Source: an uncultured Alphaproteobacteria bacterium (GTDB lineage: Bacteria > Pseudomonadota > Alphaproteobacteria > Methylaequorales > Methylaequoraceae). From it: DNA of 64,000 nt. Below, piece by piece: positions 1,840 through 26,316 of the stretch (position 1 is the stretch's first letter; each line of letters opens with the position of its first letter). The translations under genes were made by a program, and so were the position numbers. Location of the stretch: positions 6,636 through 70,635 of the forward strand of contig CACEXK010000005.1 in assembly GCA_902563505.1 (NCBI GenBank). The letters run 5' to 3'. Below the pieces are notes generated by a model. The model did not search any database. It was not told the origin of the DNA and saw nothing but the letters and a program-made list of their open reading frames with translations.

Positions 1840-1855
1840 TGGCATTATTTTTGCT
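1840..1855 (+). promoter_or_regulatory. sigma54 (-24/-12) promoter of the slt gene
   Basis: TGGCATTATTTTTGCT; GG and GC separated by exactly 10 nt; 11 nt lie between the motif and the ATG. Confidence 0.8.
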
Positions 1856-2492: not shown

Positions 2493-2508
2493 TGGCAAGA
2501 AATTTGCA
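2493..2508 (+). promoter_or_regulatory. sigma54 (-24/-12) promoter of a small ORF
   Basis: TGGCAAGAAATTTGCA, correct 10-nt GG-GC spacing. Confidence 0.8.
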
Positions 2509-2807: not shown

Positions 2808-4262
2808 TTAAACATTCAAACTCTGAATTTTCATCATCCTTCTTCTTATTGAGGAAGAGGGGATGTTAAGTAACTCTCTATATTTTGCTACTGTTCTTCT
2901 AGCTAAATTTATTCCCTCTGACTGGAGTTTAGTTACAAGAATTTCATCACTAAAGGGACAATTTATTGGTTCATTAGTGATTAATCTTTTCAGAGATTCT
3001 CTTACTGAGGCTGCTGAATGACTCTCTCCTTTAATAGTTCCACTAATTGATGCGCTGAAGAATAACTTCATTTCAAAAATCCCCCTAGGAGTCAGCATTA
3101 ATTTGTCAGTAGTAACCCGACTGACAGTACTCTCGTGCATGTCTATTTTTTTTGCAACATCTTTCAGGATCATTGGTTTAAGATATTTTTTTCCTTTTTC
3201 AAAAAATAGTTTTTGTTGATTTACAATTTCTGCACTGATTTTGAGTGTGGTTAAATTTCTTTGTTGTATTGCTTTCATCAACCATTTGGCTGAATTAAGG
3301 TTTTCTGTAATAAATTTTTTATCAGAATCAGAACAATTTAATTTCTCAATTTCTTTAACATATTCTTCATTTACAGTAACTTTTGGTAATGTGCTATCGT
3401 TTAATTCAACTTCCCAATTACCATTGTTTTTTGAAACTATAATGTCTGGGTTAAAGATATTGGTATTTTCATCAGAGTACTTGGTACCAGGTTTTGGGTT
3501 AAGTAATCTTATCAATCTAATATTTTCGCGAAGTTGATCCTCTTTTAAATTAGTTTTTTTCTGAAGTTCTTTAAGATTTCCGTTTCCAAGAAGCTCTAAA
3601 TTTTCTATGATTAATTTTCGCTCATCTGTTAATTTTTCTTCATTCAATAATTGAATCATGAGGCATTCCTTTAAATTTCTAGCAAAAACTCCATTTGGAT
3701 CAAATTTTTGCATTCTCAAAAGAACTTCTTCAATTTTAGTTTTTTCATAACCACTGAATGAAGAGATTTCATCTAAATCGTTGGTGATCCATCCATTAGG
3801 GTCAATATAATCAATAAGTATTTCTGCAATATTTTTTTCTTTTGTATCAGAGAATTCTAAATCAGCTTGACTTCTTAGGATAGATTTAAGGGATAACTTT
3901 TCACTCAGTGTTTGTTCGACTACAGACCCCGGGTCAATTGAATCATTATTTGAAGACTTGTTGTATGTATTATAAGTTGGATCTAAATCCCATCTATTTT
4001 CATAATCATCATTTTTTGGTTCATCTTTAAGAGATTCACCTGTTTCAAACGAATCATTAAGATCATTAGTATTTTCATCAAACTCCTCAGAATTTTCCTC
4101 ACTACTCTGATTTTCAAGAAAGGGATTTTCCTCAAGTTCTTTATTTACAAGATCAGTTAATTCTAAATTATTGAGTTGGAGAAGTTTTATCGCTTGCTGA
4201 AGTTGTGGGGTCATCACAAGTGACTGGCTTTGCTTTAATTTTAAATTCTGAGTAATTTGCAT
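2808..4262 (-). CDS. rpoN: RNA polymerase sigma-54 factor
   Basis: N-terminal QSQSLVMTPQLQQAIKLLQL, MHESTVSRV HTH, RpoN box ARRTVAKYRE. Confidence 0.98.
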   Translation of the reverse strand: MQITQNLKLKQSQSLVMTPQLQQAIKLLQLNNLELTDLVNKELEENPFLENQSSEENSEEFDENTNDLNDSFETGESLKDEPKNDDYENRWDLDPTYNTYNKSSNNDSIDPGSVVEQTLSEKLSLKSILRSQADLEFSDTKEKNIAEILIDYIDPNGWITNDLDEISSFSGYEKTKIEEVLLRMQKFDPNGVFARNLKECLMIQLLNEEKLTDERKLIIENLELLGNGNLKELQKKTNLKEDQLRENIRLIRLLNPKPGTKYSDENTNIFNPDIIVSKNNGNWEVELNDSTLPKVTVNEEYVKEIEKLNCSDSDKKFITENLNSAKWLMKAIQQRNLTTLKISAEIVNQQKLFFEKGKKYLKPMILKDVAKKIDMHESTVSRVTTDKLMLTPRGIFEMKLFFSASISGTIKGESHSAASVRESLKRLITNEPINCPFSDEILVTKLQSEGINLARRTVAKYRELLNIPSSSIRRRMMKIQSLNV

Positions 4263-4986: not shown

Positions 4987-5183
4987 AAAATTGCAGAATA
5001 TGTATTATAATTAGATTTTTTTTGGCTAGTGTTTTGTTATTAATAATAATTGGTTTGTCAATGACAGATAATTTACATTATTTATCTTATGTAACATCCT
5101 GGAATGCTGCAATTTTAGTTTTGGTTCTTGGTGTTATAATTTTTCTGGTGAGATTTTTCGAATACTTAAAGACAAAAGATTAA
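4983..5183 (+). CDS. Small two-helix membrane protein
   Basis: ATG at 4983 overlaps the upstream TGA (ATGA); two hydrophobic stretches; CxxC near the N-terminus. Confidence 0.6.
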   Translation: MKNCRICIIIRFFLASVLLLIIIGLSMTDNLHYLSYVTSWNAAILVLVLGVIIFLVRFFEYLKTKD

Positions 5184-5653
5184 CGATCTCTCAGGAATCT
5201 TACAAATAATTTTTTTTCTGGGACAAATCTCCCGTAAGAGTGACCAGTGAAAAAATTAACAGACCAAAAAAATTTGGGTGACCACCAATTTCTCTGTGAA
5301 GTCCAAAATGGCTCAGCTGGAGTATCTGGAAAAAACTCTAAATTAATTTTTACTTCACTACATTTTTTGCAAACTAAACTTTCTAACTCTTTTCTTTTAG
5401 GAAGTCTCCATTTTCCTTCCAATTGCTCATTTATAATTCTATTTGCTTCTTTAATCTCATTTAGATCGAGTTTTACTGGTTGACCGATACATTTTTCTTG
5501 TTTATCACTCCATTGTTGACCAGCAGAACATTTAAGCCATTCAACTTTATTCCTTAAATCTATCACATAATATCCCCTATCAATAAAATCAGCAGAAATT
5601 GCTGATTTTATGTAAAAGGATATAAAAATTACTATAAAAACTAAAAATTTCAT
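5180..5653 (-). CDS. DUF1566 (Lcl C-terminal) domain exported protein
   Basis: Signal peptide, WLKCSAGQQW, WRLPKRKELESL, FPDTPAEPFWTS, WSVNFFTG motifs. Confidence 0.8.
   Translation of the reverse strand: MKFLVFIVIFISFYIKSAISADFIDRGYYVIDLRNKVEWLKCSAGQQWSDKQEKCIGQPVKLDLNEIKEANRIINEQLEGKWRLPKRKELESLVCKKCSEVKINLEFFPDTPAEPFWTSQRNWWSPKFFWSVNFFTGHSYGRFVPEKKLFVRFLRDR
5583..5611. repeat. 12-bp perfect inverted repeat with a 5-nt loop
   Basis: ATAAAATCAGCA-GAAAT-TGCTGATTTTAT. Confidence 0.7.
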
Positions 5654-5709: not shown

Positions 5710-5725
5710 TGGTATTAAAGTTGCA
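5710..5725 (+). promoter_or_regulatory. sigma54 (-24/-12) promoter of motAB
   Basis: TGGTATTAAAGTTGCA, correct spacing, 56 nt before the motA ATG. Confidence 0.8.
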
Positions 5726-5781: not shown

Positions 5782-6549
5782 ATGGATTTAGCTTCTTTAA
5801 TTGGTTTTTTAGGTACAATAGGGATGATTGCTGGAGCAATGATTTCAGCAGGTGGATTAGGGATGTATATTGATGTTCCTTCTATATTAATTGTTTTTGG
5901 AGGTTCCTTTTTTGCAGTAATGTATACAGCTCCATTACCTACTTATTTAGGCGCGTGGGGCGCATTTGGTAAAGCTTTTAAACCACCAGTTAAAAAAATG
6001 GATGAATTAATAACTAGAATTGTTGAGCTCGCCGGTATTGCTAGAAAAGATGGTATGATGGCACTTGAGGGACAAGAAACCCCAGACCCTTTCTTTGATA
6101 ATGGTCTTCAGATGCTTGTCGATGGAGCTGATGAAGCCAAACTAACTGTTCAATTAAAAAAAGAACTAGCAGCTATGCAAGTTCGTCATAAATCTATGAT
6201 AGGAGTTGCACAATCTTGGGTTGACATAGCACCTGCAATGGGAATGATTGGAACTCTCGTTGGTTTGGTAGCAATGTTAGGAAATATGGCTGACCCAAAA
6301 GCAATTGGTCCTGCAATGGCTGTTGCTCTATTGACTACACTCTACGGAGCAATGATCGCAAACACTATCTTTACACCTATAGTAATTAAACTCAAGGGTT
6401 ATGACGCTTACGAAACAACTTACAGAGAAATGATTATTACTGGATTGCAATTTATTTCTAGAGGTGAAAGCCCAAGAAATATCCAAGATCAGCTCATAGC
6501 TAACCTTCCACCAAAAGAAAAACAAGCATTGATTGAATCTGAAGCTTAA
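5782..6549 (+). CDS. motA: Flagellar stator A subunit, short PomA-like type
   Basis: MDLASLIG start; ARKDGMMALE; APAMGMIGTLVGLVAML; IGPAMAVALLTTLYGA; 255 aa. Confidence 0.97.
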   Translation: MDLASLIGFLGTIGMIAGAMISAGGLGMYIDVPSILIVFGGSFFAVMYTAPLPTYLGAWGAFGKAFKPPVKKMDELITRIVELAGIARKDGMMALEGQETPDPFFDNGLQMLVDGADEAKLTVQLKKELAAMQVRHKSMIGVAQSWVDIAPAMGMIGTLVGLVAMLGNMADPKAIGPAMAVALLTTLYGAMIANTIFTPIVIKLKGYDAYETTYREMIITGLQFISRGESPRNIQDQLIANLPPKEKQALIESEA

Positions 6550-6558
6550 AGGTAAAGT

Positions 6559-7737
6559 ATGGCTGAAGAAAAAAAAGAAAAAAAAGAAGAGGCAGTTGCT
6601 GCCGAAGAAGAAGAACACGAGTGTGAGGAGTGTCCTCCAAAGGGAGCGCCTGCATGGATGGCAACATTTGCTGATATGGCCACCCTTTTAATGGCTTTCT
6701 TCGTTTTGATTCTTTCTTTTGCTGAATTTAATGTCCCAAAATTTAAACAAATTAGTGGTAGTATGAAAAATGCCTTTGGTATTCAAAGAGTTATACCAAC
6801 AGTTGAACAACCCAAAGGCACAACAATGCTAACACTGAATTTTAGTCCCAATCCAACTCCATCTGTAACAGATAATAATCAACAGCAAACAACTGAAACG
6901 GATCAAAAAGAAGTAGAACTCAAAACAAAAGATAATGATGCTACTAAGGACGACGGGGAAAATGAGGATGCTAAAGAATTAGCTCAAAACATTAAAGATG
7001 CTGTTTCACAAGGTGATTCAGATGTACAAGTTGAAACTGTTGGAGATAAAGTTGTTGTAAACTTTGACCCTCAAGAAACAGATGAAAAAGAAATGCAGGA
7101 GGCAGTCCAAGCCATTGAATCAATTAAAGCAGCCTCAGGAAAATCAGATACGGAAGTTCTGTTTGGGGGTGTAGAAAAACAATTAGCGCAATTATCAACC
7201 GCATCCAACAAGCAAGGTAAAGGCGAAGCTGATTCTAATGAAGGTAATGATATTGGGTCATCTCCAGATACCTCAAAGGATGAAGAAAGAAAAGCAAAAA
7301 TAGCCGAGGACAAGTTTAAAGTAGCTTTAAAAGAAGAAATGGGTGAAGGATTAATTGATATTGAGAGAAACGAAGATAAAGTAATAATTACTGTTGGCTC
7401 AGGAGGAGCATTTAAATCAGGTTCAGCCGATTTGACTACAAAGGCAAAAAAGATTATGGCAAAAATTGCAGAGGTTAATGAAAAAGGTAGAAGTGAAATT
7501 TTAGTATCTGGTCATACTGATAATAAACCATTAACATTTGGTTCGATTTATAGAGATAATTGGGATCTTGCTGCTGCAAGGTCGTCATCAGTGGTACAGG
7601 AACTGTCCGGAACAGGAAAATTAAAACCAGATAGAATGAAAGCAATTAGCTATGGAGAAACTCAACCAGTTGCAGACAATAAATCTTCTGAAGGAAGAGA
7701 AAAAAATAGAAGAATTGAAATTGAAATTAATTATTAA
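6559..7737 (+). CDS. motB: Flagellar stator B subunit, PomB-like, with OmpA-like PG-binding domain
   Basis: ECPPKGAPAWMATFADMATLLMAFFVLILSF TM with the essential Asp; GHTDN, NWDLAAARS, NRRIEI. Confidence 0.96.
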   Translation: MAEEKKEKKEEAVAAEEEEHECEECPPKGAPAWMATFADMATLLMAFFVLILSFAEFNVPKFKQISGSMKNAFGIQRVIPTVEQPKGTTMLTLNFSPNPTPSVTDNNQQQTTETDQKEVELKTKDNDATKDDGENEDAKELAQNIKDAVSQGDSDVQVETVGDKVVVNFDPQETDEKEMQEAVQAIESIKAASGKSDTEVLFGGVEKQLAQLSTASNKQGKGEADSNEGNDIGSSPDTSKDEERKAKIAEDKFKVALKEEMGEGLIDIERNEDKVIITVGSGGAFKSGSADLTTKAKKIMAKIAEVNEKGRSEILVSGHTDNKPLTFGSIYRDNWDLAAARSSSVVQELSGTGKLKPDRMKAISYGETQPVADNKSSEGREKNRRIEIEINY

Positions 7738-7743
7738 AATCTC

Positions 7744-8586
7744 ATGATTATTCAAAACAGCCCATTTTATAAGCCAAACCATTCTGTCAAGATAGTAGAT
7801 GAGGTAACTAAAAACATACCATTGGAAAATAAAAAAGAAACACAAGAGCTTAATGAAGAAGGGTTTTCTTTTTGGAAGTGGTTCAAAGGACTTGTTAACC
7901 CACTTCAAAATTTACCTTTAATTAGTGGAATATATTCCAGTGTGAATGCCGAGGATAAAAACTCAGATAGAGATTTAGTGCAAAATAGTCTTGGCGGTTT
8001 TTTGTATGGTGGACCAATTGGAGCTATTGCAGGTTTTGGCAACTGGGTTTTTAATAAGATTTTTGACAAGACTCCGACTGAATTGGCTTTGGATGCCTCT
8101 GGTATAAGTGATATTTGGAAAGATAATGATGAAAAAAAAGAGAATGTTATTGCCAAATCAGAGCAACCAGTAATTAGAGGAAATGAAAAAAGACTTTATT
8201 TACAAATGACCAGTAGTAATGATTTCTTAAAGAATTCAAAAAAAGATAAATTAAATTTAGAAAATAATTCGAACGAAAAATTAGCAAATCTTGATAATTC
8301 TATGGATTTAAAAAATGAAATAAAAAAAGATTTTATTTTGTCAAAAGAAAAAAAGATTGATCCAATAATTGTTTCAAAAAAGTTAGTTGAACCTGATTTA
8401 AAAAATAAATTTGTAAAATCCTCTAATGAGGAAGCGTTTAGAGAGATTAATTTTGATTATCCTGCTTGGAAACCAGAAAATTTGGAGATCTTAGGTAATA
8501 AAAGAGATCTAAAAAACTCAAAACTTAAGTATATGGATTTAGAAAAAAATAATTCCAAAGAATCATTTTATAATATAGATGCCTAA
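7744..8586 (+). CDS. Conserved hypothetical protein downstream of motB
   Basis: 280-aa ORF 6 nt after motB; core VNPLQNLPLISGIY...LGGFLYGGPIGAIAG; charged tail. Confidence 0.7.
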   Translation: MIIQNSPFYKPNHSVKIVDEVTKNIPLENKKETQELNEEGFSFWKWFKGLVNPLQNLPLISGIYSSVNAEDKNSDRDLVQNSLGGFLYGGPIGAIAGFGNWVFNKIFDKTPTELALDASGISDIWKDNDEKKENVIAKSEQPVIRGNEKRLYLQMTSSNDFLKNSKKDKLNLENNSNEKLANLDNSMDLKNEIKKDFILSKEKKIDPIIVSKKLVEPDLKNKFVKSSNEEAFREINFDYPAWKPENLEILGNKRDLKNSKLKYMDLEKNNSKESFYNIDA

Positions 8587-9186
8587 CTAGACAATTGGAT
8601 CCAGTTCTTCTGATTTATATTTTTCAAAAAATTCTGATCCTAGAATATTCTTAACTTTCTCCATGGTCATTTCTGAAATTTGTCCACCATAATTTTCATA
8701 ATATTCCTCGCACTTTCTTGAAGCAGCACTGGCGACACCCTGAGTTATAAACTCATTTTCAACAGCTGTTCTGGCTCTTGTTGTGGCTTCAGATTTTGCT
8801 TTAGTTAATCTTCCCATCGCTGAATTTTTTTTTCTATTGAGATCATCCACAACTTCCATTAGTTGTTTATATGTTGGATCCGGAACATTTAGATTAATAA
8901 ATTGTCCGTCAACATCATAATCAAAGTTTATTTCATCAATTTGCTCTGTAAGAATTTCGATATGGTCAGTGTTAAATACTAACAATTGAAGTTTGTGTGG
9001 GTCATCCGTTTTTTTTAAATCTGCGATGTCCACAAGCCTTCTTGGCTTACCTTGGATATTGATTCTGATGTTTTTGATTATAGTTAGGTTTGCATCAGTA
9101 GATTTAACATCTTTAAGAACTTCAGCATAGTCTTCTACAGCTGCTTTCATTAAGTTTTCAGCTTGGTCAGAATATTTTTCAGCCAT
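8587..9186 (-). CDS. Divergent ribosome recycling factor (RRF)-like paralog lacking RRF signature residues
   Basis: Aligns by eye over nearly its full length to recalled E. coli RRF with about two small indels; RTGRA, PPLTEERR and RNVRR are replaced by KSTDA, PDPTYKQL and TKAKS. Confidence 0.75.
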   Translation of the reverse strand: MAEKYSDQAENLMKAAVEDYAEVLKDVKSTDANLTIIKNIRINIQGKPRRLVDIADLKKTDDPHKLQLLVFNTDHIEILTEQIDEINFDYDVDGQFINLNVPDPTYKQLMEVVDDLNRKKNSAMGRLTKAKSEATTRARTAVENEFITQGVASAASRKCEEYYENYGGQISEMTMEKVKNILGSEFFEKYKSEELDPIV

Positions 9187-9219
9187 TTAAATTACCTTCT
9201 AAATATTTTTTATTTTAAT

Positions 9220-10005
9220 TTACACTAAAGCTTCTTTATTTTCACTAACAATGTTTTGATTTTCTTCTTTAGTTTCAACTTCTTTTTTTGAATCATCTTC
9301 AATGATAGGATCTTCGAGCCTTGAATACATAAACCTTGATTTGGGATCAAGCATTCTAATAATCTTATGAGCTTCATCCATCGACTTTGCAGCAAGTTTC
9401 ATTGAAAAAACCTTTCCCTCAAGCATAGAAAAGCTATATAAAAGGTTTAGTTGTGCCTGATAGCAGTAAAGTGATGTTAGAACCCAACCTAATAAGAACA
9501 TGTAAACATTTACAGCTAAAAGTAGTCCACTCATATTTAAGAAGAGAAAAAGCACCCACCACTTTTTTGAATAAGATAACCACAATGGCGGAAATAAACC
9601 AGCAGAAAGAGCTTTAGAATTTTCATGAATATCGTATCTTCTGTAAACATCTCTCATTGCTACATAATCTTTTAACTGGTCTAAATCAAAATTTTCTTTA
9701 GAAGAAAAACTCTTTTTTATATTCTCAGTTTCTTCAACATTTGTTGTTAAAAATTTACATCCAAGACTTCCAGTAATAATTATATCAAAAAATACATTAT
9801 CTCTAAGCACAGTTAAAATTGCTTTCTGGTTATCTTTCTTGAGTTCTCTTAGTTCCTCAGTCAGTCTTTTTTCGCCATAAATATAAAAGTCATTATTTAT
9901 AGCAACAATTACATCATCGGGTTTTAACATAAGAGAGGAGGCATAGCTTCCTTTTCTAATCTTATCAATTTTTATTAAGAAATTATTTTCCTTATTTTCT
10001 GACAT
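9220..10005 (-). CDS. PDZ-like domain fused to a DUF2628-like membrane domain
   Basis: IDKIRKGSYASSLMLKPDDVIVAINN matches the PDZ core pattern; LFPPLWLSYSKKWWVLF...LLGWVL hydrophobic DUF2628-like block. Confidence 0.6.
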   Translation of the reverse strand: MSENKENNFLIKIDKIRKGSYASSLMLKPDDVIVAINNDFYIYGEKRLTEELRELKKDNQKAILTVLRDNVFFDIIITGSLGCKFLTTNVEETENIKKSFSSKENFDLDQLKDYVAMRDVYRRYDIHENSKALSAGLFPPLWLSYSKKWWVLFLFLNMSGLLLAVNVYMFLLGWVLTSLYCYQAQLNLLYSFSMLEGKVFSMKLAAKSMDEAHKIIRMLDPKSRFMYSRLEDPIIEDDSKKEVETKEENQNIVSENKEALV

Positions 10006-10010
10006 TGGAC

Positions 10011-10736
10011 TTAAGGAAAGGTAATGCTTTCTTTTTGATCTGTAATTTCTCTAACAAGAAGTTTATTTTGACTTGAAATAGCTTCAAGTGCAGCGTTTAA
10101 TGACGATGTACTATTTGACAATTCCTTCAATAATTTTGTATTTTGATTTTTCTTATTAGCTTCAATCATTTTCCCTAATTCTTTATTTAATTTTGCAGAT
10201 GTTACTACTCCTGACTCAGCAATTGATTTACCTAATTTATCAGATTCTTCTTTGATAGACTGCGAAAGACCATTTGATAGATTAGAAATTTCTTTTGACA
10301 GATTAACCATTAGATTCTTATCATTAGCTTTTATTGCATCGGATAATTCTATTAAGGCATCCTGAATCTTGGTATTTGCGCTAACTAAATCACTATGATT
10401 TGCCAAGCTTGAATTCATATTTTCTACTGCCTTATTTACATTTTCAACATTTTCTGCAAACACGACAAGCGCTTCTCTGCTTGTATTAGTCATATCTTCT
10501 AGTTCAGACAATGATTTAAAATAAAGTAGACCTGTTAGAATTATTGCTATTACAGCTGTAGCTATTGAGCTGGAAAAAACAATAGTTGTATATTTATGTA
10601 TCTCTTTCACTTTTTGCTCCGCTTTAATATGTTCATTTTTGATTCTTTTATATTCTGATGTTACATCTGTTGCAGCATCAGCGGCATCTAAAGCAATTTT
10701 AATGCTTTCTTGCATTGCATTAATTTGTTGGTTCAT
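10011..10736 (-). CDS. Single-TM coiled-coil protein of unknown function
   Basis: N-terminal helix IALDAADAA, TM at about aa 50-73, long heptad-rich C-terminal region. Confidence 0.7.
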   Translation of the reverse strand: MNQQINAMQESIKIALDAADAATDVTSEYKRIKNEHIKAEQKVKEIHKYTTIVFSSSIATAVIAIILTGLLYFKSLSELEDMTNTSREALVVFAENVENVNKAVENMNSSLANHSDLVSANTKIQDALIELSDAIKANDKNLMVNLSKEISNLSNGLSQSIKEESDKLGKSIAESGVVTSAKLNKELGKMIEANKKNQNTKLLKELSNSTSSLNAALEAISSQNKLLVREITDQKESITFP

Positions 10737-10936
10737 GCAAGTCTTCCTTTTTTTTTTGTAATATTAACATTTTTTTCTTTTTTTTGAAATAGTGCACAAT
10801 TTATGCCAGAAATTGATTTTACTTCCAAATAAGGATTTTTTTTTGAAATTATACCAAATGCTCTACAACCATAGGGAAATCTTTGCTTGTAGGTCACATA
10901 GAAATGCAAACATTTATTGCATGCCGTATTATTCAT
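10733..10936 (-). CDS. Small four-cysteine putative metal-binding protein
   Basis: C6-x2-C9...C24...C47 (CNKCLHFYVTY..FPYGCRAFG...SGINC); ATGA overlaps at both ends. Confidence 0.7.
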   Translation of the reverse strand: MNNTACNKCLHFYVTYKQRFPYGCRAFGIISKKNPYLEVKSISGINCALFQKKEKNVNITKKKGRLA

Positions 10937-11145
10937 TTAATTCTCTTCTCTTTAATTTTTTTAACAAACTTTGCAATTTGAAATCTTATAGCCCCAAGAA
11001 AAGAAGTTAAAGCACAAAACCAAAGAAAAATTGCTAAGAGAATTTCTTCACTTTTTAAAAGTTCTAATGCTTTAAAATGGCAAACTATCGCACTGTAGAA
11101 AAAAGCAAAAGTAACAATTAATTGTGAAAAATTTCTATTGAACAT
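10933..11145 (-). CDS. Small two-helix membrane protein
   Basis: Likely ATG at 11145 (alternatives 11157, 11166), overlapping the flhB end; two hydrophobic helices and a basic tail. Confidence 0.6.
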   Translation of the reverse strand: MFNRNFSQLIVTFAFFYSAIVCHFKALELLKSEEILLAIFLWFCALTSFLGAIRFQIAKFVKKIKEKRIK

Positions 11146-12289
11146 TCTGTTTTCCATTTTCGTCAAAAATTAAATCCTCGGGAACCTCGATTTCTGGTTT
11201 TTCAATTTCTTCTCCATTATTAACTTTATAAATATAAGCAAGAGCTATAGCAACAGCATTATAAAGTTTGCTTAGAATTTCATCACCAATTTCACATGTA
11301 AAATATAATGCTCTTGCAAGTATTGGACTTCTCATATTGCCAATATTCAATTTTTTAGCCTTATCTATAATTAATTCTGCATTCTTACCTCTTCCTTTTG
11401 CCACTATTACAGGTGCATTTGAATCTCCAACTTCATATTTAAGAGCTACAGCAAAATGTGTGGGGTTTGTAATAATAGCAGTTGCTTCGTTTAGATTATC
11501 AATTGACGAAGTTTCTTTTCTGGTTTTAGAAGCTGCCGCCATTTGTAGTTTTCTTATTTTATTTTTTACTTCTGGTTGTCCATCTGTATCTTTGTACTCA
11601 TCTTTTATGTCTTGATGAGACATTCTTAAAGATTTGATATAATCATACTTTTGCCATGCAAAGTCTAAAGCAGCTATAAAAAAAAGAACAACAAGTAGAG
11701 CAATGACTAAGATTGGAAAGAATGATACAAGTCTATTTAATGCTGAAAATAAGTTTGCTTCACTTATATGCACTAAATCCGGCAAATATTTAATAAATAC
11801 AAAATAACCAACAATACCTAAAAAAAAGACTTTTATTAGAGCTTTTACTAATTCAACGAGACCTTTTGTAGAAAATATTCTTTTTAGACCAGTTATTGGA
11901 TTCATCTTTGAGGCTTTCCAATGTATTGCTTTAAAGGAAAAATTTAATCCATCTCCCATCAAAAATTGAGAGATTATACAAATAAAAATCAATGGTGTAG
12001 AAAAAATCACTGTTACCTTTATAACAAAATTTATTGCAACTGCTATTGAAGCTATAGGTGAACGACCAGCAACAAGTTCAGGGCCAAAACTAAAAAATGA
12101 TTGAGTTATTTTTAAGAAGTCTTCAATCAAGGGAGGGAAAACATACATCAAAATAACTCCAACTGTTAAAATGGTAAATACTTGGACTTCTTTTGAAGTT
12201 ACGACTTTACCATCTTCTCGTGCTTTTTGAATTCTCCTGGATGTCGGGTCCTGGGTCTTTTCCTGACTTTCGTCTTTATCTTCTGCCAT
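11135..12289 (-). CDS. flhB: Flagellar export switch protein FlhB
   Basis: EKTQDPTSRRIQKAREDG, NPTH autocleavage site, LARALY. Confidence 0.97.
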   Translation of the reverse strand: MAEDKDESQEKTQDPTSRRIQKAREDGKVVTSKEVQVFTILTVGVILMYVFPPLIEDFLKITQSFFSFGPELVAGRSPIASIAVAINFVIKVTVIFSTPLIFICIISQFLMGDGLNFSFKAIHWKASKMNPITGLKRIFSTKGLVELVKALIKVFFLGIVGYFVFIKYLPDLVHISEANLFSALNRLVSFFPILVIALLVVLFFIAALDFAWQKYDYIKSLRMSHQDIKDEYKDTDGQPEVKNKIRKLQMAAASKTRKETSSIDNLNEATAIITNPTHFAVALKYEVGDSNAPVIVAKGRGKNAELIIDKAKKLNIGNMRSPILARALYFTCEIGDEILSKLYNAVAIALAYIYKVNNGEEIEKPEIEVPEDLIFDENGKQNVQ

Positions 12290-18069: not shown

Positions 18070-18085
18070 TGCAATAATAGTGCCA
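18070..18085 (-). promoter_or_regulatory. sigma54 (-24/-12) promoter of fliKLMN
   Basis: Minus strand TGGCACTATTATTGCA, full consensus. Confidence 0.9.
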
Positions 18086-19826: not shown

Positions 19827-20726
19827 TTAATTGTCAACTTTTGTTTCTTGGGTGGTTGCGTTATTCTTATTTTTTTTTAATTCACTTATTTTTTTTTCAA
19901 CATTATTTTCTTCAGAGAATTTTAATTTATTTGATAAAATTTCTCCTATCTCAATTGCTCCTGATTTAATCTTGAGATCTCCTCTATTTAAATCTTTGTC
20001 AGGAAATAACTCAAAATCAATTATTATCTTATTTTTTAGAATGAATTCACTGATTGCTTTATGGTCTGATTCATTAAGGAAGATTCTTATTTTCTTTAGA
20101 GAATCTTCAACTGAATTTGTAAAATTTTTAATTTTTTCAAAATATTTTTCAGTTTTTGTATCAATTTCATAACCTAAAATTTCTCTAGAAATTTTTAAAA
20201 TAGATTTATTAACATTATTATTTAGCTTTTCGGAAAATTCTGGACTAATTGAAAAGATATTATCTAATGCATTCTTAAAGTTAACTGCTAAGGCTTTTTC
20301 TCCTTGTTGCAATTCTTCCTTTATTTTTTTTACACCTAGATGATAACCTTTATTATAGTAATCTTTTGCAAGATCATTGGCCATTTTTTTTGCTTCTACT
20401 TCTGTATATTTTTTCTCATCTACTTTTTTTTCTTCACTTTCTGTTTCCTTTACCCCTTCTTGATTTTTAACTATTTCTTCATCTTTTTGTTCAATAACCT
20501 CGGTATCTTTATTTTCTTCATCATGCTTAATAGATGAATCTGCTAGTTGTTTCAAACTTGTTTTTCTAAACAAGTTTGAAATATTATCAGTTATTTCAGA
20601 CTCTCTAGTAAAATCATTGCTAGTCTTATCTAATAAACTAAGTATTTCTTCTGTATTTAAAGCCTTTGATTTCTCAGGGCTAATACTGTCATCAGATTTA
20701 ACAGGGTTGTCTTTTAGCGGCATCAT
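19827..20726 (-). CDS. fliH: Flagellar assembly protein FliH
   Basis: YNKGYHLG repeat-like stretch, DKDLNRGDLKI; located between fliG and fliI. Confidence 0.8.
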   Translation of the reverse strand: MMPLKDNPVKSDDSISPEKSKALNTEEILSLLDKTSNDFTRESEITDNISNLFRKTSLKQLADSSIKHDEENKDTEVIEQKDEEIVKNQEGVKETESEEKKVDEKKYTEVEAKKMANDLAKDYYNKGYHLGVKKIKEELQQGEKALAVNFKNALDNIFSISPEFSEKLNNNVNKSILKISREILGYEIDTKTEKYFEKIKNFTNSVEDSLKKIRIFLNESDHKAISEFILKNKIIIDFELFPDKDLNRGDLKIKSGAIEIGEILSNKLKFSEENNVEKKISELKKNKNNATTQETKVDN

Positions 20727-21769
20727 ACAAAGTCATCTCCGCCTCTTCCAGCAAGAACAATTGTTCCTTCATCAGACATAGTCCTTGCTACATTAATTAC
20801 TGCTTTTTGCGCCTCTTGAACTTCTGTAAGTCTAATAGGACCTAAAACCTCCATTTCATCCTTAATATTTGCCGCAGCTCTTTGCGACATACAATTGAAA
20901 ATTTTCTCTTTCAAATCATCTTCTGTTCCTTTAAGAGCAATAATTAAGATCTCTTGATCTACATTTCTTAATAGTGTTTGCATACTCCTGTCATCCATAA
21001 GTATTAGTGTTTCAAATGTAAACATACTTTCTTGAATTTCTTTAGCTAGATGCCTATCTTTTTCTCCCAGAGCTTTAATTACTCTTTGCTCCATATTCTG
21101 CTTTGTAAAATTCATAATTGATGCTGCAGCTTTTATTCCACCTACAGAAGAAGCTCTTAATGATGTGTTTGTTTTGAATTTTAGTTGCATTACTCTTTCT
21201 AATTCTGCTAAAGCATCGGGTTGTACTGTTTCTAAAGTAGCAACTCTATGAATCAAATCCGCTTGAATATCTTCCGGTAAAAGTACTAAAACATCAGCAG
21301 CTACACCAGCCTCTAAATAAGAAATTATTAATGCCATTATTTGTGGATGTTCGTCTGAAATAAGTTCCGCAACTGATCTTGCATCCATCCAATCTAAAAT
21401 TTCAATGGGTTTGTCGCTCTCAGTAGGTGTGATTCTCCCTAAAACCGATTGAGCTTTATTTTCTCCAAGAGCTTTTGTCATTACATTTTTTATGTAATTC
21501 GATGAACCCATCCCTAGATCAGTTTGAGTTTTTATGATTGCCAAAAATTCATCAAGTACTTTGTTAACTGTATCTTGATCAAGCCCTTGAACATTGTACA
21601 TTTCTTTCCCAAGTTGTTGCACTTCTTTAGGACCAAGGTTCCTCAAAATTTCTGAAGCCTCTTCCTCTCCAAGTAACATCATCAAGATTGCACATTTTTG
21701 TGTACTATTTAATTTCTCAAAATTAGATAACTCTTCTTCATTATTTTCTTCTTTTTGTTTTTCAGCCAT
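20723..21769 (-). CDS. fliG: Flagellar motor switch protein FliG
   Basis: QKCAILMMLLGEE, EHPQ, MFTFE, MSQRAA. Confidence 0.98.
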   Translation of the reverse strand: MAEKQKEENNEEELSNFEKLNSTQKCAILMMLLGEEEASEILRNLGPKEVQQLGKEMYNVQGLDQDTVNKVLDEFLAIIKTQTDLGMGSSNYIKNVMTKALGENKAQSVLGRITPTESDKPIEILDWMDARSVAELISDEHPQIMALIISYLEAGVAADVLVLLPEDIQADLIHRVATLETVQPDALAELERVMQLKFKTNTSLRASSVGGIKAAASIMNFTKQNMEQRVIKALGEKDRHLAKEIQESMFTFETLILMDDRSMQTLLRNVDQEILIIALKGTEDDLKEKIFNCMSQRAAANIKDEMEVLGPIRLTEVQEAQKAVINVARTMSDEGTIVLAGRGGDDFV

Positions 21770-23908: not shown

Positions 23909-25063
23909 TTAAATCACTGCTTGCTTTACTTCCTCATTCTCACTCAAATTTGAATAAAAATCATTCTTAGAATTAATGTCGATCATTATATCTTTTTCAT
24001 CTATAATTTCTCCATCACATAAAACAATTGCTCTCTGTAAAACATTCTCAAGTTCTCTAACATTTCCTGGCCAATTATAGCCTTTCAATAATTCTCTGGC
24101 TTTGTTTGTTATAAATGGCAATTTAGTTATACCTGAATGTCTTTTGAGTAAAGCCACACTTATTGGAATAATATCATTAGGTCTTTCTGACAGATTACAG
24201 GTTTCTATTGGAAATACATTTAATCTGTAATAGAGATCTTCTCTAAATTTCTTATCTTTAACTTCTTCAATCATATTACGATTAGTTGTAGCAATAACCC
24301 TTACATCAACATCAATATCTCTTTGTCCTCCAATTGGTGTAACCTTCTTTTCTTGGAGAACCCTCAATAACTTTGCTTGAAGTGAAAGTGGCATTTCAGA
24401 AATTTCATCAAGAAGAAGAGTGCCTGTGTCTGCTGCCCTGAAGATACCCTTGTTTGCTGAAGAAGCACCTGTAAAAGCCCCTTTTTCGTGACCAAAAAGC
24501 ATCGCCTCTAGCATATTTTCTGGAATTGCTGCACAGTTGATAGCAACAAAGGGTTTTTCTGACCTTCCAGAATTCTGATGAATGAAATTTGAAATAACTT
24601 CTTTTCCTGTCCCGGTTGGTCCATAGATAAAAACCGTAACATCTGTTTGAGCTACTTTTTTTGCCATTTTTACCAAAGAATGTGTTTTTGTATCTGAAAA
24701 ACTGAAGTTTTCAGTAGTTAAGATCTGAAAAATTATTTCTTTAACTACTTCATCAATCCCATTAAACATGATTTCTAGGTATGCTCCACCTAGATCTTCA
24801 TTTATCGAAAATTTATTTTCTTTTGATTCATTAAGAACAATTATACTTGTAGAACCAATATTTCTAGAGACTTTAAGTAACTCTGACTTTCCTCCAATTT
24901 CATTATTGAATTTATTAGAGCAAATAAGAGTTGATTTATTTTTTTCTAAACTTTTAGTATCATTAGAATTAATTACGGAATTTTTTATATTTTTGTCATT
25001 TAAAAAGTCTGACAACTTTTCAAATTGTTCAAAACTATCTTTTAAAATTAATATTTCTTTCAT
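23909..25063 (-). CDS. fleT: FleT-like sigma54 activator (degenerate receiver-like N-terminus, AAA+, no HTH)
   Basis: GPTGTGKE, GAFTGA, LLLDEISEM, WPGNVRELEN; ends shortly after the AAA+ domain with no Fis-type HTH; first gene of the fliE operon. Confidence 0.75.
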   Translation of the reverse strand: MKEILILKDSFEQFEKLSDFLNDKNIKNSVINSNDTKSLEKNKSTLICSNKFNNEIGGKSELLKVSRNIGSTSIIVLNESKENKFSINEDLGGAYLEIMFNGIDEVVKEIIFQILTTENFSFSDTKTHSLVKMAKKVAQTDVTVFIYGPTGTGKEVISNFIHQNSGRSEKPFVAINCAAIPENMLEAMLFGHEKGAFTGASSANKGIFRAADTGTLLLDEISEMPLSLQAKLLRVLQEKKVTPIGGQRDIDVDVRVIATTNRNMIEEVKDKKFREDLYYRLNVFPIETCNLSERPNDIIPISVALLKRHSGITKLPFITNKARELLKGYNWPGNVRELENVLQRAIVLCDGEIIDEKDIMIDINSKNDFYSNLSENEEVKQAVI

Positions 25064-25111: not shown

Positions 25112-25205
25112 AATTGTTTTATTTTTTTTATTTTTTTTTAAAAATCATTAAAATCAATTACTTACGAAAGACATTTCAAATTTTTATTTTTTTAAATTTC
25201 CTTAT

Positions 25206-25221
25206 TGTCATTTTTCTGACA
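25206..25221. promoter_or_regulatory. Palindromic FleQ-box-like operator between fleT and fleQ
   Basis: TGTCATTTTTCTGACA (TGTCA-N6-TGACA). Confidence 0.65.
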
Positions 25222-25242
25222 TTATTTTTATTGTATTTATGT

Positions 25243-26316
25243 ATGACTGAGATAATTAAAGGAAGTTGCGATGCAACTAAGCAGTTAAGAAAACTAGTAG
25301 AGATGGTTTCCGTCTCTGGGTCAACTGTTTTACTAAGAGGTGAAACCGGTTGTGGAAAAGATGTTGTTGCTCGAGCTATTCATGATCAATCAAAAAGAAA
25401 AGGGGATTTAATTAATGTTAATTGTGCTGCAATACCATCAGAACTATTAGAATCTGAATTGTTTGGTCACGAAAAGGGAGCTTTTACAGGAGCCGACTCA
25501 AAAAGAGAAGGAAGATTTGAAGCCTCAAATAATGGTACTCTCTTTTTAGATGAAATTGGCGATATGCCTCTTTCTCTTCAAGCAAAATTATTGAGGGCTA
25601 TAGAAACAAGAAAAATCCAGAGGGTTGGTGGAAAAGGTGAAATAAATTTAGATCTAAGATTGATTTGTGCAACTCATCAGAATATAGAAAAAAAGATTGA
25701 AGAGGGATTATTTAGAGCTGACCTTTTTTATAGAATTAATGTTTTTCCAATTGAGATCCCTACACTGTCTGAGAGAAAAGATGATATCCCAGAATTAATT
25801 GAACATATTTTAAGTGAAATTGAAACAAGTGGCTCTAAAATTCCATTATTTGAAGATTCAGCAATTTCAGCATTAAAAGAATATATATGGCCGGGAAATG
25901 TAAGAGAACTTAGAAATGTAATTGAAAGGTCAACAATAATTTTTTCAAATAAAAAAATAAATGCAAAAAATATAAGAGAAAATTTACTTAAAATTAATCT
26001 TCCTGATTTTAAAGAAGAAAAGAAAATTATCTGGGATATGACATCAGAACTTGCAGATATAAATGAAGAAAAAGAAAATGATGATTCAAATGAAATATCA
26101 ATGCCTCATCCCAATCACTATAAAAAATGGTTTGAGTATCTTGACCAAATTGATTTGAGAAGACACTTGGGGGAGGTTGAATATATTCTTATTGAAGGTG
26201 CACTGAGAAAGTCAAGTGGATCAGTTACAGAAGCATCTAAAAGTCTAAAAATAAATAGAACTACTCTGATTGAAAAAATGAAAAAATACTCAATACCAAA
26301 AGTAGGGAATGACTAA
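25243..26316 (+). CDS. fleQ: Flagellar master regulator FleQ-like sigma54 activator without an N-terminal regulatory domain
   Basis: Likely start MTEIIKGSC at 25243; GETGCGKD, GAFTGA, WPGNVRELRN; C-terminal IDLRRHLGEVE...INRTTLIEKMKKY HTH typical of FleQ. Confidence 0.85.
   Translation: MTEIIKGSCDATKQLRKLVEMVSVSGSTVLLRGETGCGKDVVARAIHDQSKRKGDLINVNCAAIPSELLESELFGHEKGAFTGADSKREGRFEASNNGTLFLDEIGDMPLSLQAKLLRAIETRKIQRVGGKGEINLDLRLICATHQNIEKKIEEGLFRADLFYRINVFPIEIPTLSERKDDIPELIEHILSEIETSGSKIPLFEDSAISALKEYIWPGNVRELRNVIERSTIIFSNKKINAKNIRENLLKINLPDFKEEKKIIWDMTSELADINEEKENDDSNEISMPHPNHYKKWFEYLDQIDLRRHLGEVEYILIEGALRKSSGSVTEASKSLKINRTTLIEKMKKYSIPKVGND

Follow-up and report, generated by a model that had tools for sequence, protein, structure and literature searches.

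A divergent offshoot of the ribosome recycling factor family recurs in flagellar operons and is a candidate accessory protein of the motor

At the end of a flagellar operon in a 64,000-nucleotide (nt) stretch of DNA from an uncultured alphaproteobacterium (contig CACEXK010000005.1; hereafter the window, within which all plain coordinates are positions) lies a gene for a divergent relative of the ribosome recycling factor (RRF), the product of frr. For the divergent offshoot family to which its protein, P0001, belongs we coined the name RRFL.

8587 to 9186, minus strand: RRFL (P0001), an open reading frame of 199 amino acids (aa), divergent paralog with ribosome-recycling-factor fold

With moderate confidence we propose that RRFL has kept the L-shaped fold of RRF, is not a recycling factor, is made together with motor genes from sigma-54-type promoters, and would serve in the cytoplasm as an accessory or regulatory protein, either for the torque-generating unit, i.e. 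the MotA/PomA stator and the FliG rotor, or for the adjacent export gate. The recurrent operon partners of RRFL are MotAB and FliG, in three operon designs and behind flagellar-type promoters, and thus a motor accessory or regulator is the most economical explanation.

RRFL belongs to the RRF superfamily (Pfam PF01765) by sequence as well as by fold. The Pfam profile matches P0001 over positions 4-164 of 164 with E = 1.7e-11 and 44.7 bits, the gathering score being 29.7. Likewise, phmmer aligns RRFL collinearly with the Aquifex RRF (PDB 1GE9; E = 8.7e-5), and hhalign aligns the RRFL family profile with canonical RRFs over 174 columns at 13% identity with a probability of 98.8% (E = 4.9e-17). 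An AlphaFold2 (AF2) model built from a 16-sequence family alignment shows the two-domain RRF topology with a predicted local distance difference test score (pLDDT) of 90.4. Domain I is a three-helix bundle formed by helix 1 (residues 2-25), helix 3 (106-143) and helix 4 (149-194), the latter two being connected by a loop (144-148), and a strand-rich beta/alpha/beta domain II (31-100) is inserted between helix 1 and helix 3. When this model was compared to the PDB by using Foldseek, the best 26 matches were all RRFs (E from 1.7e-12 to 1.9e-5). A preliminary description of the locus, made from the sequence alone, had recognized a nearly colinear RRF scaffold by eye, which these data bear out. 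According to the model the protein is small, soluble and largely helical, and as neither a signal peptide nor a membrane segment is seen by eye or in the model, it is presumably located in the cytoplasm.

The recycling factor gene frr is an essential single-copy gene, expected in the context tsf-pyrH-frr-uppS. The assembly of the window's genome (G000; 1.27 Mb, 87% complete) contains three RRF-fold genes, one of which is a canonical frr (217.8 bits) within tsf-pyrH-frr-uppS-cdsA, so that the window gene is not the sole frr-like gene, in line with its earlier description as a paralog. P0001, in turn, scores 31.4 against the NCBIfam equivalog model of Frr (TIGR00496), below the cut-off of 149.1. 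To define what has changed we used a comparison set of nine canonical RRFs, in which conservation reaches at least 85% in about 33 columns. In the profile alignment RRFL retains only M13, P102 and K177 of these columns; I147 is common to RRFL and canonical RRFs as well, yet it is only 67% conserved in the canonical set. The RTGRA and EERR motifs as well as R127 and R131 (numbering of the genome's own frr) are missing from the RRFL family. Nine of about ten conserved basic canonical residues have become non-basic or variable, namely R26, R29, R61, R97, R107, R108, R127, R131 and K113, the last of which corresponds to a conserved aspartate (D114) in RRFL. The hallmarks of Frr domain II (W68-D69, N88-P89 and G93) are gone, too. 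The replacements that had been read by eye in P0001, i.e. RTGRA to KSTDA, EERR to YKQL, RNVRR to TKAKS and SED to TQG, are all reproduced by the profile alignment. The more general statement that every invariant surface motif is replaced holds family-wide for the hallmark contacts, but not for K131 (within TKAKS), which retains basic charge at the position of canonical R130, equivalent to R132 of E. coli; among RTGRA, EERR, R129, R132 and R133 (E. coli numbering) only the R132 position stays positive. Since K131 is invariant in RRFL and aligned with an invariant canonical arginine, some basic contact appears to be kept. The glycine mutant of R132 of E. coli RRF is a separate PDB entry. Judged by equivalog score, contact residues and gene neighbourhood, RRFL would not be classified as a functional Frr. 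As RRFL has the shape of RRF but hardly any of the surface employed by Frr, and as a canonical Frr exists in addition, a role of RRFL in ribosome recycling is unlikely.

What RRFL has gained was evaluated by counting residue conservation on 29 representatives with less than 75% identity. Y5, R49 and K131 are invariant, S6, D53, E145 and I147 are at least 90% conserved, and A9, P102, R137, K177, L182 and G183 at least 80%; Y5-S6, R49, K131, R137, E145 and I147 are family-specific gains. From RRF topology and the secondary-structure map, the start of helix 1 (Y5/S6/A9), the end of helix 3 (K131/R137/A141/E143) and the loop together with the start of helix 4 (E145/I147/A152) are predicted to meet where the helical domain has its tip, well away from domain II. 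The tip corresponds to a region that is variable in canonical RRFs. R49, R50 and D53 would form a second patch on domain II.

Both the losses and the gains bear on the possibility that RRFL still binds the ribosome, RNA or an RNA-binding partner and, in the manner of a specialised translation factor, tunes or couples flagellar protein synthesis, for instance as a competitor of Frr or EF-G or by retaining ribosomes where the export apparatus has its base. Consistent with such a function, the entire L-shaped, tRNA-like fold is preserved, the invariant K131 occupies the E. coli R132 position, K177 aligns with canonical K176, and R49, R50, K129 and R137 are conserved basic residues; moreover, post-transcriptional control of flagellar genes is common in bacteria. 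However, the replacement of nearly all conserved canonical basic residues and of the domain II hallmarks argues against it, as does the fact that the most conserved surface of RRFL is new and lies at the tip. In addition, the recurrent neighbours of RRFL are the motor proteins MotAB and FliG rather than flagellin or regulatory RNA genes, and a second EF-G with which RRFL might pair was not found, G000 yielding a single one; the idea of such a dedicated partner was therefore dismissed. We consider this explanation unlikely.

The preliminary description had further stressed the net acidity of the protein. Its hand count of 37 Asp/Glu versus 27 Lys/Arg is exact and the C-terminal extension of P0001 is real (about 16 aa), with about 16 to 45 extra residues in most RRFL members and up to about 80 in P0134. 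As an argument, however, acidity fails for the family, whose isoelectric points (pI) range from 4.8 to 9.3; the canonical Frr of the window's genome is likewise acidic (pI 5.0). Acidity as a sign of nucleic-acid mimicry was thus rejected.

A full HMMER pass over 1.84 billion representative proteins yielded 77 RRFL clusters, which include members of 200-270 aa at 22-40% identity and one 409-aa fusion of RRFL to a BLUF domain; the output of a profile search of a 5.8-billion-protein set was dominated by close relatives and contributed nothing further. In the phylogenetic tree RRFL is monophyletic (support 100/100) and separated from the canonical RRFs by a branch of about 2.5 substitutions per site. 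Sequence comparison thus marks RRFL as an undescribed monophyletic offshoot of the RRF family. Of 401 sampled alphaproteobacterial genomes, those with RRFL belong to the window's own family (f1), where it is present in 13 genera, except for a single genome from a different family; weaker hits are canonical frr, and all RRFL-positive genomes are flagellated. Source databases label the proteins either 'hypothetical protein [Rickettsiales bacterium]' or 'ribosome recycling factor' (JGI and some NCBI records). The third RRF-fold gene of G000, at a contig end, is a further member of the family:

G000 C6:68843-69385 (L003:1435-1992), L048:9239-9829 and L049:9034-9645: paralog B, second RRFL copy

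Paralog B of G000 is 40% identical to the window's RRFL. Across f1 this copy is spread outside flagellar loci, with 33-40% identity to the flagellar copy, and adjoins a J-domain protein gene in two genomes, in G012 together with genes for a TerB-like protein and a photolyase-related FAD-binding protein. In the tree it is nested with the flagellar copy (support 97/95) and thus represents a later duplicate.

In the window, RRFL is the last gene in the order fliE-F-G-H-I-J-K-L-M-N-O-P-Q-R-flhB-p77-p241-p261-RRFL, the end of which comprises the following features.

11135 to 12289, minus strand: flhB, last recognised gene of the fliE...fliR-flhB export/basal-body run
10933 to 11166, minus strand: p77, small open reading frame overlapping the end of flhB
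10011 to 10736, minus strand: p241, 241 aa, about 26 kDa, with one transmembrane helix (residues about 50-73), a coiled coil and a long C-terminal part
9220 to 10005, minus strand: p261, 261-aa membrane protein with weak PDZ-like and DUF2628 matches
9187 to 9219, minus strand: spacer between p261 and RRFL, 33 nt, containing the ribosome-binding site GAAGG

The ribosome-binding site lies 8 nt 5' of the RRFL ATG. Neither a promoter nor a terminator was found in the 33-nt spacer, and p261 and RRFL are thus probably co-transcribed. In five alphaproteobacterial families flhB is followed by p77, p241 and p261, which are equipped with a sigma-54-type box of their own. Here, p77 is 64-69% identical within f1 and detectable in other families, p241 is conserved downstream of flhB, and p261 is the conserved final gene of the flhB operon in the five families. 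RRFL orthologs within f1 share 69-84% identity, compared to 67-78% for FlhB, 72-90% for MotB and 55-65% for p261. RRFL is thus conserved like FlhB and MotB, which indicates purifying selection. The RRFL operon converges with the stator operon, motA-motB-p280.

5782 to 7737, plus strand: motA and motB, the best NCBIfam model of motA being PomA and motB belonging to the PRK08944 MotB family
7744 to 8586, plus strand: p280, an f1-specific gene after motB

The TAA stop codon of p280 on the plus strand directly abuts the TAG of RRFL on the minus strand at 8586/8587 (8584-8589), and no terminator was found between the convergent operons; convergent transcription must therefore either collide or read through. 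In locus L007 the two genes even overlap by 4 nt.

That RRFL is linked to flagellar genes beyond this window is evident from other lineages, which provide the chief argument for a role in the flagellum. A metagenome scan returned 80 RRFL loci, 43 of which we assign to Group II and 37 to its sister lineage, Group I. Group II proteins are 33-39% identical to that of the window, and their genes directly follow motB (motA-motB-RRFL) in 38 of 43 loci, mostly at a distance of about 20-70 nt; the remaining five lack upstream sequence. In Group I, fliG is found upstream of RRFL in 31 of 37 loci, with a gene for a conserved secreted 4-Cys protein of about 91 aa in between. This fliG is an orphan, but it is full length (Pfam FliG_N/M/C) and its product is 60-63% identical to FliG of the window. 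Housekeeping genes flank these loci.

20723 to 21769, minus strand: fliG, the ortholog of which (60-63% identical) heads the fliG-small protein-RRFL operon of Group I

A gene for a single-domain protein that binds cyclic nucleotide monophosphates (cNMP) is convergent with RRFL in 32 Group I loci, and in genome G425 a cNMP-binding protein is encoded downstream of the RRFL copy. The more distant members P0169 and P0179 are situated inside flhA-flhF-(flhG)-fliA-flgF clusters, with rpoN near P0169, too; P0179 is the RRFL-BLUF fusion. P0185 (locus L031) is convergent with a p261 homolog, and P0174 with a gene for a 914-aa flagellin-domain protein. Altogether, flagellar linkage is seen in at least five different gene arrangements and in lineages down to 22-37% identity. 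The tree of paralogs and their neighbourhoods, proposed as a check in the preliminary description, speaks for RRFL as one family with recurrent flagellar contexts. The 914-aa protein (L028:2369-5113, minus strand), which adjoins an RRFL member, shows metalloprotease-like, RTX calcium-binding and flagellin C-terminal Pfam matches and could be a giant or enzymatic flagellin.

The operons concerned are preceded by TGG-N9-TGC-type -24/-12 sequences, which we read from the sequence as putative sigma-54-type boxes. A strict sigma-54 pattern occurs 6 times, compared to 1.7 expected occurrences. The gene for sigma-54 itself and the boxes of the window are:

2808 to 4262, minus strand: rpoN (sigma-54), beside the motAB region in all lineages compared
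10794 to 10808, minus strand: sigma-54-type box before p241, TGGCATAAATTGTGC, starting 72 nt before the p241 ATG
5710 to 5724, plus strand: sigma-54-type box before motA, TGGTATTAAAGTTGC, conserved in f1, Group II and other families
18071 to 18085, minus strand: near-consensus sigma-54-type box before fliK, TGGCACTATTATTGC
1840 to 1854, plus strand: sigma-54-type box before an SLT-domain gene at 1867
2493 to 2507, plus strand: sigma-54-type box before an ATG at 2537

At -69 to -78, the p241 box recurs in three other f1 loci and likewise in three of five loci examined from other families; of the remaining two, one carries a box at -168 and the other has none. For Group I fliG, a TGGCAT-N6-TTGC box (TGGCAC in one case) lies upstream in 10 of 10 loci examined. 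Each of the three operons p241-p261-RRFL, motA-motB-RRFL and fliG-x-RRFL (x being the small secreted protein) is thus placed behind a conserved putative box, by which RRFL would count as a member of the flagellar regulon, here the sigma-54 class genes of a polar flagellum of the Vibrio/Fla1 type. Several flagellar leaders (window 10761, minus strand; Group I fliG leaders, e.g. L075 at about 6570) show a GTTAATAT-type motif downstream of the sigma-54-type box and ahead of the start codon. As an element of these 5' leaders it was discarded as too weak, since it may occur by chance in an AT-rich genome.

RRFL is not a fixed part of this layout. Four other families show the same arrangement up to p261, which there meets motB, without RRFL or p280, and RRFL is absent from four genomes, 99-100% complete, in which an identical fliI...flhB-p241-p261 layout converges on motB-motA. 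RRFL is thus an accessory insertion at the junction of export and stator operons and not a core flagellar part. For the co-option by the motility regulon that had been suggested earlier this means that the recurrent linkage stands, while a fixed place in the regulon does not; the mechanisms suggested along with it, namely a decoy for EF-G or for an RNA-binding protein, a chaperone or a structural part, are conjectural. RRFL as an obligatory partner of p261 or p241 was rejected, as both are present without RRFL in these four near-complete genomes.

The position at the tail of the flhB operon is also relevant to the idea that RRFL is a flagellar type III export chaperone or export-gate adaptor, a helical bundle like FliS, FlgN or FliT that might replace an undetected FlgN. 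The Pfam scan gave no match of P0001 to a chaperone family. In f1, RRFL closes the fliO-fliR-flhB export operon, distant members lie beside flhA and beside a flagellin-domain gene, the protein is small, soluble and largely helical, and no Pfam FlgN match was obtained in five genomes tested. However, FlgN escapes Pfam in the control genome Caulobacter as well, so that its non-detection here says little, and FliS is present in three copies. The tail position arose by insertion at the motAB junction, related families having the operon without RRFL, and the two best-sampled lineages link RRFL to motAB and fliG and not to export substrates. Moreover, both a BLUF fusion and cNMP-binding neighbours are unlike chaperones. 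An export chaperone is thus distinctly improbable in our view.

Several observations weigh against the assignment to the motor. What the data show directly is an RRF fold devoid of the Frr hallmarks, the existence of a canonical frr besides RRFL, purifying selection, conserved promoter boxes and a flagellar context that recurs; beyond this, every functional step relies on gene neighbourhood. Since Group I is the sister of Group II and the loci of P0169 and P0179 are syntenic, truly independent flagellar associations number only about four to five, not dozens. The near-complete genomes without RRFL have just been mentioned, and K131 occupies the position of the arginine that is most critical for Frr function in E. 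coli, so that residual ribosome binding may persist. Furthermore, RRFL of G425 is unlinked to flagellar genes, paralog B of f1 lies beside the J-domain, TerB and photolyase-like genes, and, mostly on short contigs, P0190 neighbours ClpB, P0171 a HAD hydrolase and P0145 GDPD/GST genes. One could argue from these non-flagellar neighbours, and from the lack of RRFL in some genomes with the same flagellum, that RRFL is unrelated to flagella, e.g. a general signalling adaptor, and that its context reflects inherited synteny or hitch-hiking on well-expressed operons. Yet inherited synteny alone can hardly account for three operon architectures that differ in the motor gene joined to RRFL and are each preceded by a separate sigma-54-type box, and among the sampled alphaproteobacteria RRFL is confined to flagellated genomes. 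We therefore give this explanation very little credence, the least of all those weighed here.

As an accessory or regulator of the motor, RRFL would act through protein-protein contacts, docking by way of the conserved tip of its three-helix domain, with the domain II patch as a second surface. In some bacteria, a light or cyclic-nucleotide signal may be relayed to the motor, as suggested by the BLUF fusion of one member and by the cNMP-binding proteins encoded near RRFL in two lineages. A second line of thought concerns chemotaxis. The CheW domain (Pfam PF01584) was found in none of 37 f1 genomes and none of six related flagellated genomes (G156, G171, G204, G246, G322 and G425), 14 of these 43 genomes being at least 90% complete, while it was detected in the controls E. 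coli, B. subtilis and Caulobacter. Canonical chemotaxis input is thus lacking in these genomes, and bacteria with this flagellar system appear to swim without a canonical chemotaxis pathway. A complementary distribution of RRFL and chemotaxis was rejected, as CheW is absent with or without RRFL; by itself its absence is thus no pointer to RRFL. Taken together, the BLUF fusion, the cNMP-binding neighbours and the absence of CheW suggest that RRFL conveys signals in some lineages. In a bolder and rather doubtful version, RRFL, as a tRNA-shaped descendant of a translation factor, would be the output module of a new motor-control pathway in flagellated marine bacteria devoid of chemotaxis; it would dock at the FliG-MotA/PomA interface and brake, clutch or tune a sodium-type polar motor in response to cyclic nucleotides (via the adjacent single-domain cNMP protein) or blue light (via the fused BLUF domain).

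Some further features of the window and its genome were noted alongside.

5180 to 5653, minus strand: 157-aa secreted protein with an Lcl C-terminal domain (Pfam PF07603), directly upstream of motA, conserved in f1, Group II and other families
23909 to 25063, minus strand, and 25114 to 26316, plus strand: divergent sigma-54-type activator genes adjoining fliE
G000 C5:5190-6329: three consecutive small open reading frames (109, 126 and 138 aa), repetitive, beta-helix-like and bactofilin-like by eye
G000 C5:3364-4903 (L145): four-gene module just upstream of the window, about 10 kb off
G000 C3:10821-16594: three FliS-domain genes about 2.5 kb apart

An NtrC-like protein of G425 is a homolog of both activators, the first of which, judged by its length, has no obvious receiver domain. 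The one bactofilin-like reading frame tested had no NCBIfam match. The spacing of the FliS-domain genes, which is the same in three other f1 genomes, suggests three flagellin-fliS units. The four-gene module encodes an NHLP-like protein (128-144 aa), a secreted Sel1-repeat protein (210-222 aa), a 71-92-aa protein and a secreted 4-Cys protein; its first protein gives a weak NHLP/nitrile-hydratase-alpha-like match and is 70% identical over 92 aa between distant genomes. In two distant lineages this module flanks RRFL (L024:3511-5087 and L025:6996-9906), its last two genes being fused to one 166-aa reading frame in L025. Its 4-Cys gene is also the one that separates fliG from RRFL in Group I.

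Our literature searches on RRF paralogs, RRF-like proteins and flagellar RRFs yielded nothing relevant, nor did they bring up a bacterial paralog of RRF whose role lies outside translation. In the uncultured marine alphaproteobacteria whose flagellar motor operons carry RRFL, the fold of a translation factor probably has a second, motility-linked and hitherto undescribed job. Should RRFL indeed work on the flagellum, the flagellar system has taken over a universal translation-factor fold. RRFL would also be a candidate for motor control in abundant, genome-streamlined marine swimmers without CheA and CheW. In any case, the database label 'ribosome recycling factor' is probably wrong for these proteins and could mislead metabolic and marker-gene analyses.

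Compared to Frr (PF01765; TIGR00496; PDB 1EK8, 1GE9 and 6VUD), RRFL shares the L-shaped two-domain fold, a collinear sequence, P102, K177, M13 and the positive R132 position. It differs in having only 13% identity, in the loss of R129, R133 (E. coli numbering) and other motifs, in a longer C-terminus and in the tip patch, and it is found in flagellar operons instead of tsf-pyrH-frr-uppS while co-existing with a canonical frr. Organellar RRFs (mitochondrial mtRRF and chloroplast RRF; PDB 6NU2 and 6ERI), which are structural matches to the RRFL model, are likewise extra, diverged RRF copies, yet they still recycle ribosomes and keep the basic motifs that the bacterial RRFL lacks. Short BLUF photoreceptors such as PixD control motility; one RRFL member is BLUF-fused within a flagellar cluster, whereas the window's RRFL has no BLUF domain. 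Soluble effectors of the flagellar motor that dock on FliG or MotA are the YcgR/PilZ brake, the EpsE clutch and MotI/DgrA. By analogy, RRFL may function in a comparable way, since these are small, cytoplasmic, signal-linked accessory proteins encoded with or near motor genes; their folds, however, are unrelated to that of RRFL, which has no domain for binding cyclic di-GMP. MotF and FliL are stator helpers of the Fla1 flagellum of Rhodobacter sphaeroides that reside in the membrane or the periplasm (PMC7277832). The p241 protein encoded upstream of RRFL resembles Rhodobacter MotF in architecture only (about 24-26 kDa, a transmembrane segment at about 50-74 and a large C-terminal part; PMC7277832). 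With MotF and FliL, RRFL has in common the setting of a lineage-restricted accessory of a gamma-type, sigma-54-controlled polar flagellum, from which it stands apart as a soluble protein.

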